Positions 18,001 through 27,000 of a stretch of DNA of 64,000 nt are shown here, piece by piece. The stretch lies in assembly GCA_963663965.2 (NCBI GenBank), contig CAXXFK010000020.1, positions 192,001 through 256,000 on the forward strand, in the 5' to 3' direction. Origin of the DNA: Sedimentisphaerales bacterium (lineage in GTDB: Bacteria; Planctomycetota; Phycisphaerae; Sedimentisphaerales; SM23-30). Made by a program: the position numbers. How positions within the stretch are numbered: position 1 is the stretch's first letter; the number at the start of each line of letters is the position of its first letter.

Positions 18001-21000
18001 CCCACGGCCAGAGCTTCTGGGATTACAGCGGGCCGGGCGTGATGTTGTGGGATTGGTACCAATATCCGCTGCCCACCCTGGCGGTCTGGAATTCACTCAA
18101 TTACCATATCGGCCTGAGTGATCGGGCCGGATTCGTCCGCCCCCCTGGCGCCAACCTATGTATCTTCCAGGACCTGCGCCATCACCGCGGCGTCATGATC
18201 GCCTACGCCGACCGTAACTCTAAACAGGACGCCGTAATCGAACTACCCATCCACAACCTGATGGCAGAAGACATAATGGGTAATCCTGTTACCATCGTTA
18301 AGAACCAGCTGATCCTTTCTAAAACTGAACGTCCAGTGGTTTTATATGCCACTGATGATACTACTGGTCGCGTTCTCTACCAGACCTGCGAGCCGCTTGA
18401 CCGGAAATACCTGGGCTTTGTCAGCAGCGATGCGGCCGGCCGAAAAATCTATCGCATTCCCGATATCTGGGAAGGTGAGCAGAAAAACACCGCAAAGGGC
18501 AATCCCGTCCATAACGACGGCCGGCCTGTCTGGCGGATCGACCGGCTCTATCCCAATGACCGGATCATGCCCAATCATTACACGCCGATGGTCTGGGGTA
18601 ATCAATGCTGGATAGCACCGGACCACACCCATGGCGGGCATCCCAGCGCTACGGTTAAAGATGGGATTATCCGATTCGGCGCCATGGGACCCTGGAATGG
18701 TAACGATACCAATTTTAAAAAGCAGGGCGCACTGGTCTTTATCGTACCTGACACCGGCCTCTATCATCTTCAGGCAACCGCCAGTTCTCAGCCATGGGGC
18801 GGATCACAAGGTATCGCTAATGTCTTTGTGATGAAACGCGATGAGCAGCGCGTAGGCGTGATCAAGCAATATGATTTACCCCCAGATAACTCTCCCGTCG
18901 CCATTGACATCGAAATCGATGCCGCCACTGGCCACGAACTGATCTTGCTGGTAGAAATGGCGCCGTATCATAACTCATCCAATATCAGTTTGAAGGATAT
19001 CGTAATAACCAGAGACTAATCGATAAGATTATAACACCACCCCTTCCCCCTCAGCCACAATGTGTTTGATATTCTCTAACGCCCGACACATCTTAGGCCG
19101 ACCAGGCAACCGAACTACTTCATTCAATAGCGTAATTTTCAGCTGGCCCCCTGCGTCGTGCTTGGAAATAGAATCCGCACCTGATAAATTAAGGGCACCT
19201 TAATTTATTTCGTAAAGATACCCTTTCTTAAAATAGTTATGATTCTATCCTACAACTCCATCTCCGGATTCAACTCCACCTCCACCATAAACGGTTGACT
19301 CTCGGCGCGGTTGTCCGGCTGATAATATTCATAGACCCGGGCCGGTTCGATGCGGGCCTTCACCGGGTATTTGGCCTTGAGCTGATAGTCAAATGTAAAG
19401 GGCTTGTCTGCCGGCAGCGCGCGCAGATACAGGATACACTGCGTCCCGGTTATTTCATATCGGGCCAGTTGACCGGCGGCCTGCAACAACTGGAACCCGG
19501 CCGGATCCACTCCGAATCCCGGCGGAATACCCAGATCGACAATCGCCATCGGCACCACACCCCCGGACAGATTACGCACCGTCACCGTACAGCCCAGCCG
19601 GTCATCCACTCCCAGCCGGGTCCGGTCATAACTCACCGCGATATCCAGCTGCCGGTCCGGCCCGGGCTCAACCAGAGTCCCCGGCTCACGATCCGGCACC
19701 CAGTACCCGCCGCTCAACCGATACGGAATACTGCCGCCGCGGCTGCTGATACGGATCGCGTTTTCGCCCGGCCGCAGGATCTCTGACAAATTGAGCGCCT
19801 GCACCAGGTCACTGTTGCGCGCGTCAATCACCGCCTGCCCGGCCGGCCGGCCATTCACCTGCACCTCCAGTTGAATGGTCTGATCCGAGCCCAGCGCCTG
19901 ACGCATCCCCATCATCAGCGCCTTCATGGTCAGTATCGTACTCTGGGTGGAATGCCAGGAGCCATAGCTATCCTTCTGCCGGGTCAGCCAGGTCAGCGCC
20001 TTGCGGACAATCTCACCGTGGCGGTTGCCCTTCATCAGGGCCATCGTCCCCAGCGCCGTTGTCTCGATATCCAGGCATATGCCGCGCGAATACATCATCC
20101 CGCAACCATCGCCGCTCAGGAGGGCCAGCTGACCCTCCTGCTCAAACCGATTCGCCAGCACATCCGCCAGCTGCCTGCCGGCAGTGTCATTGGGATTAGC
20201 CGCCAACAGCGCGTTGGCCGCCAGCGCCATCACATACGGCGACCGGACCTCACCGAGATGCTCCCTCAGATACGCCATCGCGCGCGCCACGCCCTCATGC
20301 TCGATACCCGCTTCAGCCAGGTTCCAGGCAATATAGGCGGTCGGGGCGACCGGGCCCATCCGCTGGACATCCACCAGGTGCACATCCCGGTCATCCGGCC
20401 AGGATCCATCCTCCCGCTGCTTGCCAAACAGCCAGGCGGCGGTGCGGTCGATGATCCGCTTGTCCACCGAATGCACCCTGGCCATATCCGAAAATTCCAT
20501 CACGCCATAAGCGCTCAGCATAATATTGGCCGGTGGATTGCCGAACCAGTCAAAGCCGCCGCCGGCCACCTCAAAGGTCAGCAGCCGCTGATAACCCGCG
20601 GCAATGAACTTGCGGGCCTTTGCCTCGATCTCCGGCGTCACCTGTTTGGTTTCCAGCATATATTGCAGAACCATGATATTCGGATAAGTAATCGAGCTGG
20701 TCTGCTCGAAGCAGCCATACGGCATCTGGAAAATAGCGTCCAGGCCCTCCATCACCTCGCTGAAGGTCGATGGATACAACGTCAGCTGCAACTGCTGCGA
20801 ATGGGCAATCGCCTCTTCCGCCAGGGTCAGCGTATGCCGGTTATCGCCCGTCAGCGAATCGCTCACCAGCCAGTTTACCTCGCGGCCGTCCGGCTTTACG
20901 CGCACCTCGCGCCGGATCGCGTCGCTCATCGCCTGGCCCTGCGCCAGTACCATCAGCGGATGCGTGCCCACCTCAACCGCCTTGATCCGGAACGAGACCG

Positions 21001-24000: not shown

Positions 24001-27000
24001 CATCCAGCAGACCTTCCAGGTACGCGATCATTTTATCCTGACATTCCTGACATTTCATGGCTGTATCTCCTTGCCAACCGCAGTTGACAGTTATGGGTTG
24101 AGTGAATGGGCCAGCCGTTCGCGCAGCATCTGATAGGCGCGCGACAGCATCTTGGTCACCGTGCCGATCGGCATCTCCATCTGGGTCGCCACTTCGCGGC
24201 ACGTCAGACCGCTGAAATAGCGCATCATCACCAGGTTCCGATACGGCTCCGGCAGGCTCTCCAGCGCCTCTTCCAGTTCATAATCGCCCGCGGGCGACTG
24301 CGAACCGGGATGATTCGGTTGGGTTTTCATCCGGGACACCTCTTTGTGTTTCTTTTCCGTGCGAACGGTTTCCAGTACGACCAGGTAAGCGATCCCCAAC
24401 AGCCACGCGCCCAGCTTCTCCGGCTCCTTCAACTCATCCAGCCCGCGCCACGCTCGCAGAAAGGTCTCCTGCACAATATCGTCCGTATCATGGATATGGT
24501 GTTTACGCGCCAGCCAGGCCCGCACGATCGGCTGATAACGCCGGATCACTACCCGAAACGCCTCAGCCTGACCGCCCAGGCACCGCGCGATCGCCTCCCG
24601 GTCGGACAGGGCCGCCTGATTGTTGGTCTGTGTTTCCAATGCTTAACCTTCCCATAAATACGTGGCACGGGCATCCTGCCCGTGATTGAGTTTTGTATTT
24701 TTTCACAGGCGCCAATGCCCGGTCAACCTGGTTTTTCGCAACAGGAACGGATTGCTATTCACTTGTTTAACGATTAAAGGATACACCAGTGTTTCTTTCT
24801 ACCTGATTGTGAAAAAAATCAGCCGGATTGCGACAAAATATTATATTTTTTTGCATTTCTTCATTTCCACCCCATCCCCAACACCGCTCTAACCGCCGGT
24901 AAAAAATCAATTTAGCAACAAACACTCGACCTTTTACAGGTTTGTCAGGACAAATACCAGCTTCAGATATGCCTTGACACTATGCATAATAATGTGTTAT
25001 TACTGAATAATAGGTATGACCGAATTTGCATATTAGAGTATTTAATGAAAATCAGGCATTATATGTCTATATTTTCTTAATTTGGTAATAAAAATTCTGA
25101 GTCATGAAAGGAGTGAACATGTTGGTGGAATCAAGCTCTAAGGTTGTTTCGGTAGTTGTCTTTCTTTATGGTTAAATGTTTTCTAAATGGCCAGGAATTC
25201 ACCCAAAATTCAAAGATTGCTAAAGCAAAATGCAACTACTAAGCGGAAATATGTTGTTAATTATGCCACGGATTTACCACATATTTTGGTTGAACTTGAG
25301 CCAGACCAGGATCCGAACAATCCTGACACCGTTGAGCGGTTATACTATTATTACAATGATTTATTAGTTGCTCATCGTGAAGGGGCCTATTCAATCGGTC
25401 AGTACCAAAACAGATATTTTTATCTGCATGACCGATTAGGCAGCGTCAGACAGATCATCGATTATTTAGGTAATGTGAAAAATCGTTATATTTATTCACC
25501 CTGGGGCAACCAGTTACTGGATGAATGTGAAACAACGATTGAAAACAATTATCTCTTTACCGGGTTATTTTATGACTGGGAAATTGATGCTTATGATGCC
25601 CGGGCAAGGGAATACTTCCCCTACCTGGCAAGATTTAATGGCTACGATCCTGTCCTTGGAAATTTCCAGGAACCACTTACCCTGCATCAGTATTTGTATT
25701 GTTTGAATGATCCAGTGAATATGATTGATTCAGATGGGAATATGGCATTCGTAGCAATGATGACTGGAACAGGCGGAGCAACAGCATTAGAATGCGCATT
25801 ATATGCTGGCGGTGCTACTTTAGCAGTTTATGTAACATACAAGTTGTTTGATGCAATTGATTTAAATAATACTGTCTTAGATTTAGTGATTGCTGCTGAT
25901 AATGCATTGGATAACATTAATGATGCTCTTATGGATACTGCTATTAATATAGCTGTTTGGGCAAAATCGCGTGATAGTAGTAAAAATGAACCACATGGTG
26001 ATGGTGGGAGATCACTAGAGAAAGCAAGAAAACAAATTGAAGAATTGGAAGAGCAACTTAAGGATGCAACTGGAAGAGAAGCAAAAAAAATTAAAAATAA
26101 AATCAAAAGGATATGGGACGATGCACAAAAAAAGAAAAAAGGAGAAACACACCATAAAAGATAAATGAGGTATAAGATATGATAAGTAAAGTTATTATAA
26201 AACCACTTATAGGCATAGATAGTATTCATCTAGGGATGCAAAGAAATGTTGTAGAGACTGTATTAGGTGTTCCAGATTTGTTTGAGCAAAAAGCTTATGA
26301 TGAAGATGATAGCACAGAAGTGATATTGGAATACACAAGCTTTGGTATTGAATTGACGTTTTCGTCTACAGACAATTATCTTCTTGGAACAATAACGATA
26401 AAATCAGAGGAAGCAGAGCTTAATGGTCATAAAATAATCGGTTTGAGGGAAAACGAATTTTTGAATTTGTTATCTCATATCAATATTGGCCCAATTAAAT
26501 TGGAAGACGATTTTATTGATTTAGATTCGCGCGACTACACGTGTGATAGCCTGAGTATGTCCTTTTGGGTACATAACGGAATATTAACCTCAATAACATT
26601 ATATCCTAAATATGATGATACGGGGAATACTCCTATTTGGCCGAATATTATTAGATAAGCAAACGGTTCTTCCTTTGTTTTTTTAATATTATATTTATTC
26701 TCACCGAGGTGGCCATGAACGCAATGATATAAGTATCAAATGACTTTGGAAAGAAAGACTTATCAAATTACTTAAGCTTACAGTAATGAATCGTTTATTT
26801 ATAAAGACATCTTGAAATGCATAATATTTCTTATAGTTTTTCGACATAAATTTCGGAGGATAAAATGAAAAACCATGTTTTAACATTAGTTCTATTGTTA
26901 ATCGTATCTAGTGCCAATGCTATGGATTATGTTGTCTATGACATCGGTAAACTGCATTATTTTGGCAGCTGGGGTACTGAGTCAATTCAAATTAATAATA

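Follow-up and report, generated by a model that had tools for sequence, protein, structure and literature searches.

A predicted anti-sigma and thioester macroglobulin fusion in a Sedimentisphaerales bacterium as a possible self-renewing protease trap and receptor

The protein P0001 (g02475) of a Sedimentisphaerales bacterium joins an anti-sigma domain of the class I type to a complement-type macroglobulin with an intact thioester motif, and it is paired with a neighboring ECF sigma factor. We give a probability of roughly 0.5 to the reading that this pair is a self-renewing protease trap and receptor, in which a cut in the bait would spring the thioester, the spent protein would be degraded, and the freed sigma factor would transcribe its own operon. 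The pairing of sigma factor and trap probably lets the cell register a sprung trap and make more of it, and it recurs in many uncultured bacteria. If true, ECF signalling gains an input domain whose reaction is covalent and happens a single time, and thioester proteins gain a direct line to transcription.

The window analyzed was a stretch of 64,000 nt (assembly GCA_963663965.2, contig CAXXFK010000020.1, positions 192,001-256,000), and all coordinates refer to it (Table 1). Both ORFs were re-found on the minus strand with a gap of 32 nt, in agreement with the single operon proposed in a preliminary description of this DNA, and the seven Pfam rows given there for P0001 were re-obtained with identical ranges (zf-HC2 3-36, MG2 222-315, MG3 317-385, A2M_BRD 527-662, A2M 905-994, TED_complement 1098-1381, A2M_recep 1504-1587). 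The sigma factor was above the cut-off for TIGR02937 in NCBIfam, an assignment at the superfamily level only, and P0001 was placed in no NCBIfam family. Relatives of the sigma factor were found in 59 of the 201 genomes of the order. Neither a conserved third gene nor a conserved protease gene was found beside the pair, and a simple scan gave no terminator 3' of P0001.

Table 1. Features of the sigma factor and fusion locus, with positions in the 64,000-nt window.
Feature	Position	Strand	Basis
Putative -35 element TGTCGCAA of the sigma factor's own promoter	24828..24835	-	Motif upstream of 31/31 sigma genes of this type
Putative -10 element CACAA	24807..24811	-	Consensus CACTA, one mismatch; 16-nt spacer
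ECF sigma factor gene (g02476)	24091..24639	-	182 aa, putative TTG start; Pfam Sigma70_r2 and r4_2
Ribosome-binding site AAGGAG	24067..24072	-	Sequence; 8 nt 5' of P0001 ATG
Anti-sigma/thioester macroglobulin fusion gene P0001 (g02475)	19250..24058	-	1602 aa ORF
Class I anti-sigma domain, residues 1-60, C3/H29/C33/C36	23879..24058	-	zf-HC2 E 2.8e-7, above cut-off
Membrane helix 1, residues about 90-113	23720..23791	-	Hydropathy; helix 89-115 in model
Macroglobulin ring, MG1 to first half of MG6, residues about 120-662	22073..23701	-	Pfam MG2, MG3, A2M_BRD; model
LNK-like helical insert, residues 663-790	21689..22072	-	Model
Membrane hairpin in bait: helix 2 (805-823), loop QIRY, helix 3 (828-847)	21518..21646	-	Hydropathy; both models, low confidence
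Pilin alpha-1-like segment, helix 3 and amphipathic helix, 828-876	21431..21577	-	24 bits, E 3.5e-7, prepilin-like profile
Variable linker 877-894, candidate cleavable bait	21377..21430	-	Lowest conservation; pLDDT < 50
Second half of MG6, MG7, first part of CUB, residues 895-1060	20879..21376	-	Pfam A2M 905-994; model
Thioester domain (TED), residues 1098-1381	19916..20767	-	TED_complement E 1.3e-45
Thioester motif PYGCFEQ, Cys codon TGC	20702..20722	-	C1116-Q1119; aligned to CD109 thioester
His1227	20378..20380	-	Aligned to CD109 His
MG8 domain with M1504 and YEYY (1576-1579)	19274..19654	-	A2M_recep

It is very likely, judging from family and gene order, that P0001 is the anti-sigma factor of the adjacent sigma factor. 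Its N-terminal domain is helical in the predicted structure (helices 3-14, 20-32 and 34-58) and carries the Hx3Cx2C of class I (ASD/ZAS) anti-sigma factors at H29, C33 and C36; these residues and C3 were invariant among 28 aligned anti-sigma factors. This motif, the helical domain, and a gene position directly behind the ECF sigma gene are shared with the RsiW-SigW-type class I (ZAS) pairs as presented in PMC7406223, a family in which zinc and non-zinc forms are mixed, and P0001 differs from those pairs in its macroglobulin ectodomain. Among the 120 best relatives of P0001, PF13490 was present on six, as had been claimed, and HxxxCxxC was present in eight.

The remainder of P0001 has the complete domain order of the A2M and complement thioester proteins (MG ring, LNK and bait in MG6, MG7, CUB, TED, MG8), an order common to CD109, A2ML1, TEP1 and C3/C4 (PDB 8s3o, 7q1y, 2pn5). 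CD109 was the best sequence match (E 2e-68), with CxEQ in both proteins, and Foldseek matched the P0001 model to C3, CD109 and A2ML1. The best fold matches among the animal proteins were native forms: the model of residues 403-1602 (pLDDT 80.5) gave TM 0.44-0.48 to native CD109, A2ML1, TEP1 and C5, compared to 0.22-0.31 for activated forms. For the TED-MG8 packing, the model was closer to native than to activated structures, but at an rmsd above 20 A. What sets P0001 apart from these animal proteins is an anti-sigma domain at its N-terminus with a membrane helix, a bait that has two membrane crossings and a pilin-like helix at its end, and CFEQ in place of CGEQ. The macroglobulins of the ECAM and Salmonella type have a lipoprotein anchor and a pbpC linkage. 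Like P0001, E. coli ECAM/YfhM and Salmonella A2M (PDB 5a42, 4u48) are envelope thioester proteins with a bait region; however, they are without a signalling domain, Salmonella A2M is distant in sequence (4u48 E 6e-12), and these bacterial A2Ms are described as having two extra N-terminal MG domains (PMC9156758).

It had been stated earlier that P0001 lacks the CxEQ thioester. GCFEQ is intact; the pattern C[GALS]EQ misses it. Loss of the thioester motif in P0001 is ruled out by PYGCFEQ and by its relatives, since each of the 89 P.GC.EQ motifs in the 120 best relatives reads GCFEQ. Of the 83 50% clusters that bear an anti-sigma domain and have a bait that could be scored, 67 had the same motif and nine more stopped exactly at the Cys position, which refutes the assumption of a scaffold without a thioester. 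Truncated relatives of 1100-1250 aa were considered as thioester-less forms and rejected, since 36 of 43 stop exactly at the Cys position. M1504 and YEYY were invariant among 11 aligned full-length members. From these motifs, the thioester of P0001 is quite likely to be functional.

A further difference from the animal proteins was noted in 83 related loci, some of them sigma-linked, where TGA takes the place of the thioester Cys codon; Uabimicrobium genes in L166 and L219 are examples, and P0001 itself has TGC. This in-frame TGA most likely encodes selenocysteine. It was found aligned to Cys in 84 matches, compared to one match with TAA or TAG, and the frame continues for 400 residues or to the edge in 81 of the 83 TGA homologues. 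A 5-bp stem behind the TGA, a candidate SECIS hairpin chosen from the same data on which it was counted, was present in 36 of 79 TGA forms (2.3 expected) and in one of 92 Cys forms. The selB gene was above the cut-off in 48 of 50 TGA genomes, compared to 30 of 50 Cys genomes. As a SECIS test, folding-energy z-scores did not differ between TGA and Cys forms, and Rfam gave no relevant match.

The bait is not a simple periplasmic loop, and hydropathy indicated three membrane helices rather than the one described previously. Two of them lie inside the bait region, which is made up of a hairpin in the membrane, a pilin-like helix and a short linker of variable sequence. The hydrophobic block at 799-852 reached a peak Kyte-Doolittle value of 2.8, compared to 1.7 for helix 1, and the baits of relatives have up to six membrane crossings. 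Confidence across the region was mostly below pLDDT 60. The soluble, unstructured bait of A2M protease inhibitors was not found in P0001, where most of the bait is hairpin and helix and the variable linker has approximately 18 residues. This linker was the least conserved region of 26 aligned members (0.20, compared to 0.68 for MG2), and a variable, low-confidence linker of 35-84 residues was present at the bait position in all 26 two-helix baits.

Bait proteolysis is the likeliest trigger, a reading toward which we lean slightly from the sequence features above, and in monomeric A2ML1 bait cleavage is reported to expose the thioester (PMC9156758). Alternatively, the thioester itself could be the trigger, and the sigma factor would be freed once the thioester reacts, in a C3-like manner, with an amine, a hydroxyl or the surface of an invader. 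The Cys/TGA exchange at one codon suggests selection on reactivity, and the closest sequence matches, CD109 and A2M, are well ahead of Salmonella A2M. His1227 is aligned to a CD109 His at the place of the catalytic, hydroxyl-directing His of complement. However, this position is variable among relatives and not conserved in the sigma-linked ones, and the variable linker is kept in every two-helix bait. In favor of such a trigger, the changes that follow aminolysis of A2ML1 are described as resembling those of proteolysis (PMC9156758). We regard a thioester-triggered sensor as rather unlikely.

The segment at 828-876 has the hydrophobic alpha-1 helix with Pro22 and the amphipathic continuation of type IV prepilins. 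It was recovered with a profile of 62 prepilin-like ORFs from the same genome; Pfam gave no match on the segment alone. The "pseudopilin N-terminus" ascribed to relatives proved to be internal, with all Pfam matches between A2M_BRD and A2M (N_methyl at 929-950 of P0011 and 914-935 of P0012; T2SSG at 691-765 of P0031). A sensor or decoy could work through this helix, by prepilin peptidase cleavage, by pairing with membrane pilins, or by luring pilus binders. Such a role would suit the 39 rows of 199 baits that match the profile (the window protein contributing two rows), among which two show a textbook cleavage site, and the T2SSG-like motif of 38 soluble baits, which points to two different pseudopilin forms in the bait. 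However, the G/FxxxE site is absent in P0001, where the segment is internal and R826, Y827 and K831 occupy -1, +1 and +5, and it was present in only one of 83 anti-sigma-bearing clusters, for which reason prepilin peptidase was rejected as a general trigger. Only 17 of the 83 reached at least 15 bits on the profile, and a control scan showed that unrelated proteins of the genome, too, contain pilin-like helices at internal positions, with at least 62 prepilin-like ORFs as possible donors. A pilin-linked function is accordingly judged unlikely.

With bait proteolysis as the trigger, P0001 would be an anti-sigma factor of class I held in the inner membrane by three anchors, with an outer domain that works as a monomeric thioester trap for proteases. 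At rest, the zinc domain would hold the neighboring sigma factor, as expected from family and gene order, and the ectodomain would be closed with its thioester shielded by MG8, consistent with the motifs present and the predicted fold. A periplasmic protease would cut the variable linker that follows the pilin-like helix, and the thioester domain would then swing out and bind the protease covalently. A cut in the bait alone would leave the macroglobulin ring on the first helix, and therefore release of the sigma factor needs a further step. In this least certain part of the model, the cut may free the bait hairpin and tag the sprung protein for additional proteolysis. RseP, whose gene is present in the genome, would then cut helix 1, and the sigma factor would be released. 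It would transcribe its own two-gene operon, with the trap renewed as it is consumed.

Comparable logic is found in RsiV-sigmaV of Bacillus subtilis, where, by the account in PMC5014341, the anti-sigma factor serves as receptor for the attacking enzyme and also as its inhibitor, and is destroyed on binding; RsiV binds lysozyme non-covalently, and the likeness is one of logic alone, with no kinship of ectodomains expected. DdvA-DdvS of Myxococcus xanthus, as described in PMC11506125, resembles P0001 in that a zinc-binding anti-sigma domain and a membrane helix are joined to a large periplasmic domain whose family is known from eukaryotes. DdvA, with a single helix and a TPR-CHAT domain, controls a defense island, whereas P0001 has three helices and a thioester domain, with no target found beyond its own operon. 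The bulky ectodomain of DdvA is reported to block RseP, which acts after ectodomain loss (PMC11506125). The macroglobulin could likewise be a bulky cap and cargo, stripped by general envelope proteolysis before RseP frees the sigma factor, so that the trap would carry no specific signal. In keeping with such a cap, 25 of 28 loci with this sigma type carry other ectodomains and three carry a macroglobulin. By this comparison, the macroglobulin has, in the family of this genome, taken the place of the ectodomain normally found in a widespread sigma/anti-sigma pair.

The distribution of sigma linkage bears on this alternative. Of 127 macroglobulin loci that could be scored, 35 (24/76 and 11/51) had an ECF sigma gene immediately upstream, although the loci are related by descent and the locus counts are not independent. 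A membrane-spanning bait was found in 34 of the 35, linkage occurred in one of 63 soluble-bait loci, and at least four sigma lineages were involved, which argues against a mere cap; we consider the cap quite unlikely. On its side, 30 loci have a membrane bait without any sigma factor, which shows that the hairpin is not confined to signalling proteins. Sigma linkage only with a membrane bait was rejected as an absolute rule by L213, which has a sigma gene, an anti-sigma domain and a soluble bait; in L056 and L094 the anti-sigma domain is retained although no sigma gene lies upstream. A single origin of the link was rejected (AU p 2.8e-5 on a quick tree), the linked sigma factors not forming one clade.

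A chance fusion, decaying gene or assembly artefact was also considered. The second half of the insert and the bait look foreign in composition (GC3 0.34, compared to 0.74 in the core), and the window's anti-sigma domain and sigma factor lie on long branches. AT-richness of the bait as a family trait was rejected, being found in the window, L036, L146 and L147 but not in general. Against chance, the same fusion occurs in two further genomes of the family, 116 anti-sigma-bearing clusters were among the best 150 of a profile search, the motifs are intact, and one public contig covers the whole locus with 0 differences, although it may be the source of the same DNA. This explanation is largely refuted by recurrence and highly improbable.

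A promoter motif is conserved among sigma genes of this type (Table 1), and a second sigma lineage has a motif of its own, with five of seven sites at its own operon. The idea of a macroglobulin as an input to an ECF anti-sigma factor thus gains from gene order in the 35 loci, repeated recruitment and the conserved promoter; its premises of a lost thioester and a simple periplasmic bait do not stand. A scan of the genome for a wider regulon gave 18 sites, compared to 7, 17 and 10 in three shuffles, and no claim can therefore be made for sites outside the two sigma operons. The promoter words were not found in the searched supplement of Casas-Pastor 2021. The word "macroglobulin" did not occur in the searched text of PMC7406223, its supplement or PMC7826278, and a full-text literature search found no description of the fusion, a membrane-crossing bait or a selenocysteine macroglobulin; planctomycete ECF surveys lay outside its scope and may list the architecture.

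Because the two-gene unit and its predicted promoter can be reconstructed in a laboratory strain, the question of what bacterial macroglobulins respond to becomes testable. The occurrence of an animal-like fold among free-living planctomycetes and in other environmental phyla bears on the origin of bacterial thioester proteins. A broader, complement-like receptor is doubtful in our estimation: a membrane-anchored thioester (a selenoester in some lineages) with a pilin-mimic bait would covalently capture whatever cuts or engages it and report through the bait helices to the sigma factor, the design having arisen repeatedly by sigma/anti-sigma swaps onto membrane-bait macroglobulins. Candidate targets of such a receptor would be a protease of a predator or competitor, or a pilus-binding agent.

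The macroglobulin fusion gene P0001 and the ECF sigma gene are separated by 32 nt, and a ribosome-binding site lies ahead of the former. A Pfam scan recovered the domain set already given in the preliminary description (zf-HC2 3-36, MG2, MG3, A2M_BRD, A2M, TED_complement and A2M_recep). However, the thioester motif that was reported there as absent was found as PYGCFEQ (C1116-Q1119), in alignment with its CD109 counterpart. In the best 120 relatives, each of the 89 P.GC.EQ motifs reads GCFEQ, and the MG8 residues M1504, Y1576, Y1578 and Y1579 were unchanged across 11 aligned members. 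Judged from sequence, the trap of P0001 appears armed. The structure models had mean pLDDT values of 80.9 (residues 1-1100) and 80.5 (residues 403-1602), with the bait mostly below 60, and the 403-1602 model gave TM 0.44-0.48 against native CD109, A2ML1, TEP1 and C5 versus 0.22-0.31 against activated forms. A closed fold and three helices are predicted for P0001.

Coordinates of the gene pair and of other features discussed (window positions unless a genome or locus is named; G000, the window's own genome)
Feature	Coordinates	Strand	Basis
Macroglobulin fusion gene P0001, 1602 aa	19250-24058	minus	ORF in window
ECF sigma gene, 182 aa	24091-24639	minus	ORF in window
AT-rich segment (LNK end and bait)	21400-21900		
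Unrelated neighbouring genes	9288-19019		
L148, sister sigma with zinc anti-sigma	G000:C21:135744-137785		
L149, own-genome paralogue, 1644 aa	G000:C39:29265-34199	minus	
CGEQ-type animal-like macroglobulin	G000:C31:10566-14749	minus	
Unrelated proteins with internal pilin alpha-1-like helix	G000:C27:48078-50360; C10:82395-84659; C28:280323-281126		
L213, sigma with soluble bait	L213:696-6000	reverse strand of locus	
P0004, relative called short	L147:829-6072		
Opposite-strand anti-sigma segment	L093:1759-2058		
Singulisphaera and relatives clade	L094:6878-11725; L056:6956-11708; L047:6998-11623		

The locus was covered in one piece with 0 differences by a public contig that is possibly not independent of the window DNA. 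The nearest relative, P0002, carries the source name Sedimentisphaerales and comes from a genome of the same family; the host is probably a planctomycete of the Sedimentisphaerales type. Across the class, matches were found in 17 of 401 genomes, and sigma was directly upstream in 8 of the 16 besides the window's; an artefact is very improbable. The neighbours, unrelated to the pair, encode a Sel1 protein with 15 repeats, a DDE transposase, a GH127 glycosidase and, converging on the fusion gene, a CBM_4_9 protein.

In place of the single membrane helix first described, P0001 contains a second, more hydrophobic block (799-852) between the two halves of MG6, which is the bait position. Since these halves necessarily lie on the same membrane side, we infer that the bait crosses an even number of times, or dips in and returns. 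Among two-helix baits (n = 26), K/R exceeded D/E in the loop in 15 and fell below it in 1, consistent with a cytoplasmic turn. At this position, five or six hydrophobic stretches are present in many relatives; the window protein has two bait helices versus about six in its two family relatives. The window's AT-rich segment has a GC3 of 0.34 versus 0.74 in the core; this region is also AT-rich in L036, L146 and L147.

The pseudopilin N-terminus formerly ascribed to relatives proved to consist of matches inside the bait. A profile built on 62 prepilin-like ORFs from the window's own genome gave 24 bits for P0001 residues 828-880 and matched 39 rows of 199 baits (P0001 counted twice). As a control, 1125 further ORFs of membrane type from this genome were scored; 27 reached at least 10 bits, all pilin-like by eye. 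Searched alone against Pfam, the segment gave 0 matches. A pilin-linked role of the bait helix would accommodate this likeness and is considered rather unlikely; the prepilin peptidase site is not kept, and P0001 itself is not a pilin, as the segment is internal to the bait. In 38 soluble baits a T2SSG-like motif stands in place of the helix. Unrelated own-genome proteins also carry an internal pilin alpha-1-like helix, which marks it as a module reused there.

Sigma linkage was then compared with bait type. In the first set (80 further loci added to give 97; 76 scorable, 21 truncated left out), sigma and membrane bait co-occurred in 24, membrane bait stood alone in 12, sigma with soluble bait in 0 and neither in 40. 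In the second set (51 scorable of 83), the counts were 10, 18, 1 and 22; loci in both sets are related, and the counts are not independent. This preference of sigma for membrane baits suggests that the hairpin links the sprung trap to helix 1. However, 30 loci have a membrane bait without sigma, and L213, the sole soluble-bait exception (an anti-sigma fusion with several T2SSG-like repeats and a TGA thioester codon), would signal, if at all, without a hairpin. When 50%-clusters were searched with a profile whose seeds were anti-sigma-bearing members, so that the hits are enriched for them, 116 of the best 150 were such proteins. Of the 83 clusters with scorable bait, 78 exceeded the membrane threshold, with the remaining 5 similar by eye; their thioester site was GCFEQ in 67, ended at the Cys position in 9, was unaligned in 6 and degenerate in 1.

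The protein collection's call of P0004 lacks 66 residues, and the true ORF starts with the zinc anti-sigma domain, so such short calls cause fusions to be missed in protein-level counts. In L093, sigma and macroglobulin are separated by a segment that encodes the anti-sigma on the other strand; this small inversion is either real or from assembly. The Singulisphaera clade lacks the upstream sigma gene, and L047 also lacks the anti-sigma domain; by gene content, this pattern is one of stepwise loss. The paralogue L149 has GGCFEQ and a soluble bait with a T2SSG-like motif, is without an anti-sigma domain, and adjoins a prepilin-like gene on the other strand. The CGEQ-type macroglobulin is distributed over two or more ORFs, and its matched N-terminal part holds two TGA codons; it is split, frameshifted or recoded.

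Of the 201 genomes examined in the order, 59 hold a member of the window sigma's family. The next gene was visible in 28 of 30 loci and always started with the same zinc anti-sigma domain, while a macroglobulin followed in only 3 of the 28, all from the window's family, which indicates that it was swapped onto an existing module. The linked sigmas form at least four groups; a single clade of all 36 was rejected (p-AU 2.8e-5; quick LG+G4 tree, two rows excluded). A predicted promoter, TGTCGCAA-N15/16-CACTA, preceded 31 of 31 sigma genes of the window's type with at most 1 mismatch per element, holding 27.5 bits versus 10.6 in shuffles when scored on the same 31 sequences from which it was derived. 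The window's copy reads CACAA instead of CACTA. Own-genome sites numbered 18 versus 7, 17 and 10 in shuffles, the top four being both sigma operons and two sites within shuffle range. One planctomycete lineage with a different motif had 7 sites in 5 genomes (reversed control, 3), 5 of them at its own operon; of the two extra sites, in L150 and L154, one precedes a gene for a hypothetical protein of 249 aa and the other a lipoprotein-like gene, both possible regulon members. No third gene conserved beside the pair was found across loci. The simplest output of the window sigma would be more of the fusion protein itself. L148 encodes a 380-aa ectodomain without a Pfam family (four relatives scanned), and the promoter motif it shares with the window operon makes cross-talk possible.

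Our best reading, with a probability of about 0.5, is that a bait cut would spring the trap, free sigma and renew the protein; its dynamic steps we infer. In A2ML1, bait cleavage or aminolysis is described as exposing the thioester and unlocking MG8, with the MG ring left largely static (PMC9156758). Sensing triggered by the thioester instead is considered unlikely, and a macroglobulin acting as a passive cap quite unlikely. Within the bait, only the linker that follows the pilin-like helix is both soluble and variable; helix and linker together span 35-84 residues in 26 members. Under the bait-cut reading, proteolysis of this linker would spring the trap and leave the ring on helix 1; RseP, whose gene was found in the genome, could then act only after another cleavage or a change in how the helices pack.

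Domain set and CxEQ place P0001 in the A2M/complement family, where it is closer in sequence to CD109 than to Salmonella A2M, but unlike A2M inhibitors it does not have a soluble bait. It fits class I anti-sigma factors by motif and gene position. DdvA (PMC11506125) is the closest working likeness in layout and RsiV (PMC5014341) in logic; archaeal CxEQ homologues are described without sigma links in part of PMC8416519, and part of PMC13069473 repeats a transfer-from-animals hypothesis. The word 'macroglobulin' was absent from PMC7826278 (main text, part of supplement), PMC7406223 (main text and supplement) and PMC7671368 (main text), and literature searches, with planctomycete ECF surveys outside their scope, found nothing on an anti-sigma/macroglobulin fusion. 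As an ECF input architecture the fusion is real, recurs in other genomes and is apparently undescribed. An armed trap, judged from sequence, and a membrane-crossing bait make it more striking than the preliminary description suggested, and its mechanism is directly testable.

Among 43 family proteins without GCxEQ, 36 stop exactly before the Cys. A DNA pattern with TGA at this codon matched 84 loci (TAA/TAG control, 1), of which 83 were homologues (L157-L240, e.g. L166 and L219; Planctomycetota, Chloroflexota, Myxococcota and others) and 81 stayed open over 400 residues or as far as the edge. TGA closed 24 of 74 closed frames and is thus still a stop in those genomes. selB exceeded the cut-off in 48 of 50 TGA genomes (50 of 84 loci) and in 30 of the 50 with Cys forms (50 of 80). 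Downstream of the TGA, a 5-bp stem picked from these same data occurred in 36 of 79 (2.3 expected) versus 1 of 92 Cys forms; overall folding z-scores did not differ between the forms, and an Rfam search for an element behind the TGA gave no match. The TGA most likely encodes selenocysteine. The window's thioester codon is TGC, and no selB was over the cut-off in its genome. Sigma lies upstream in 12 TGA loci, and TGA and Cys forms are interleaved in the tree.
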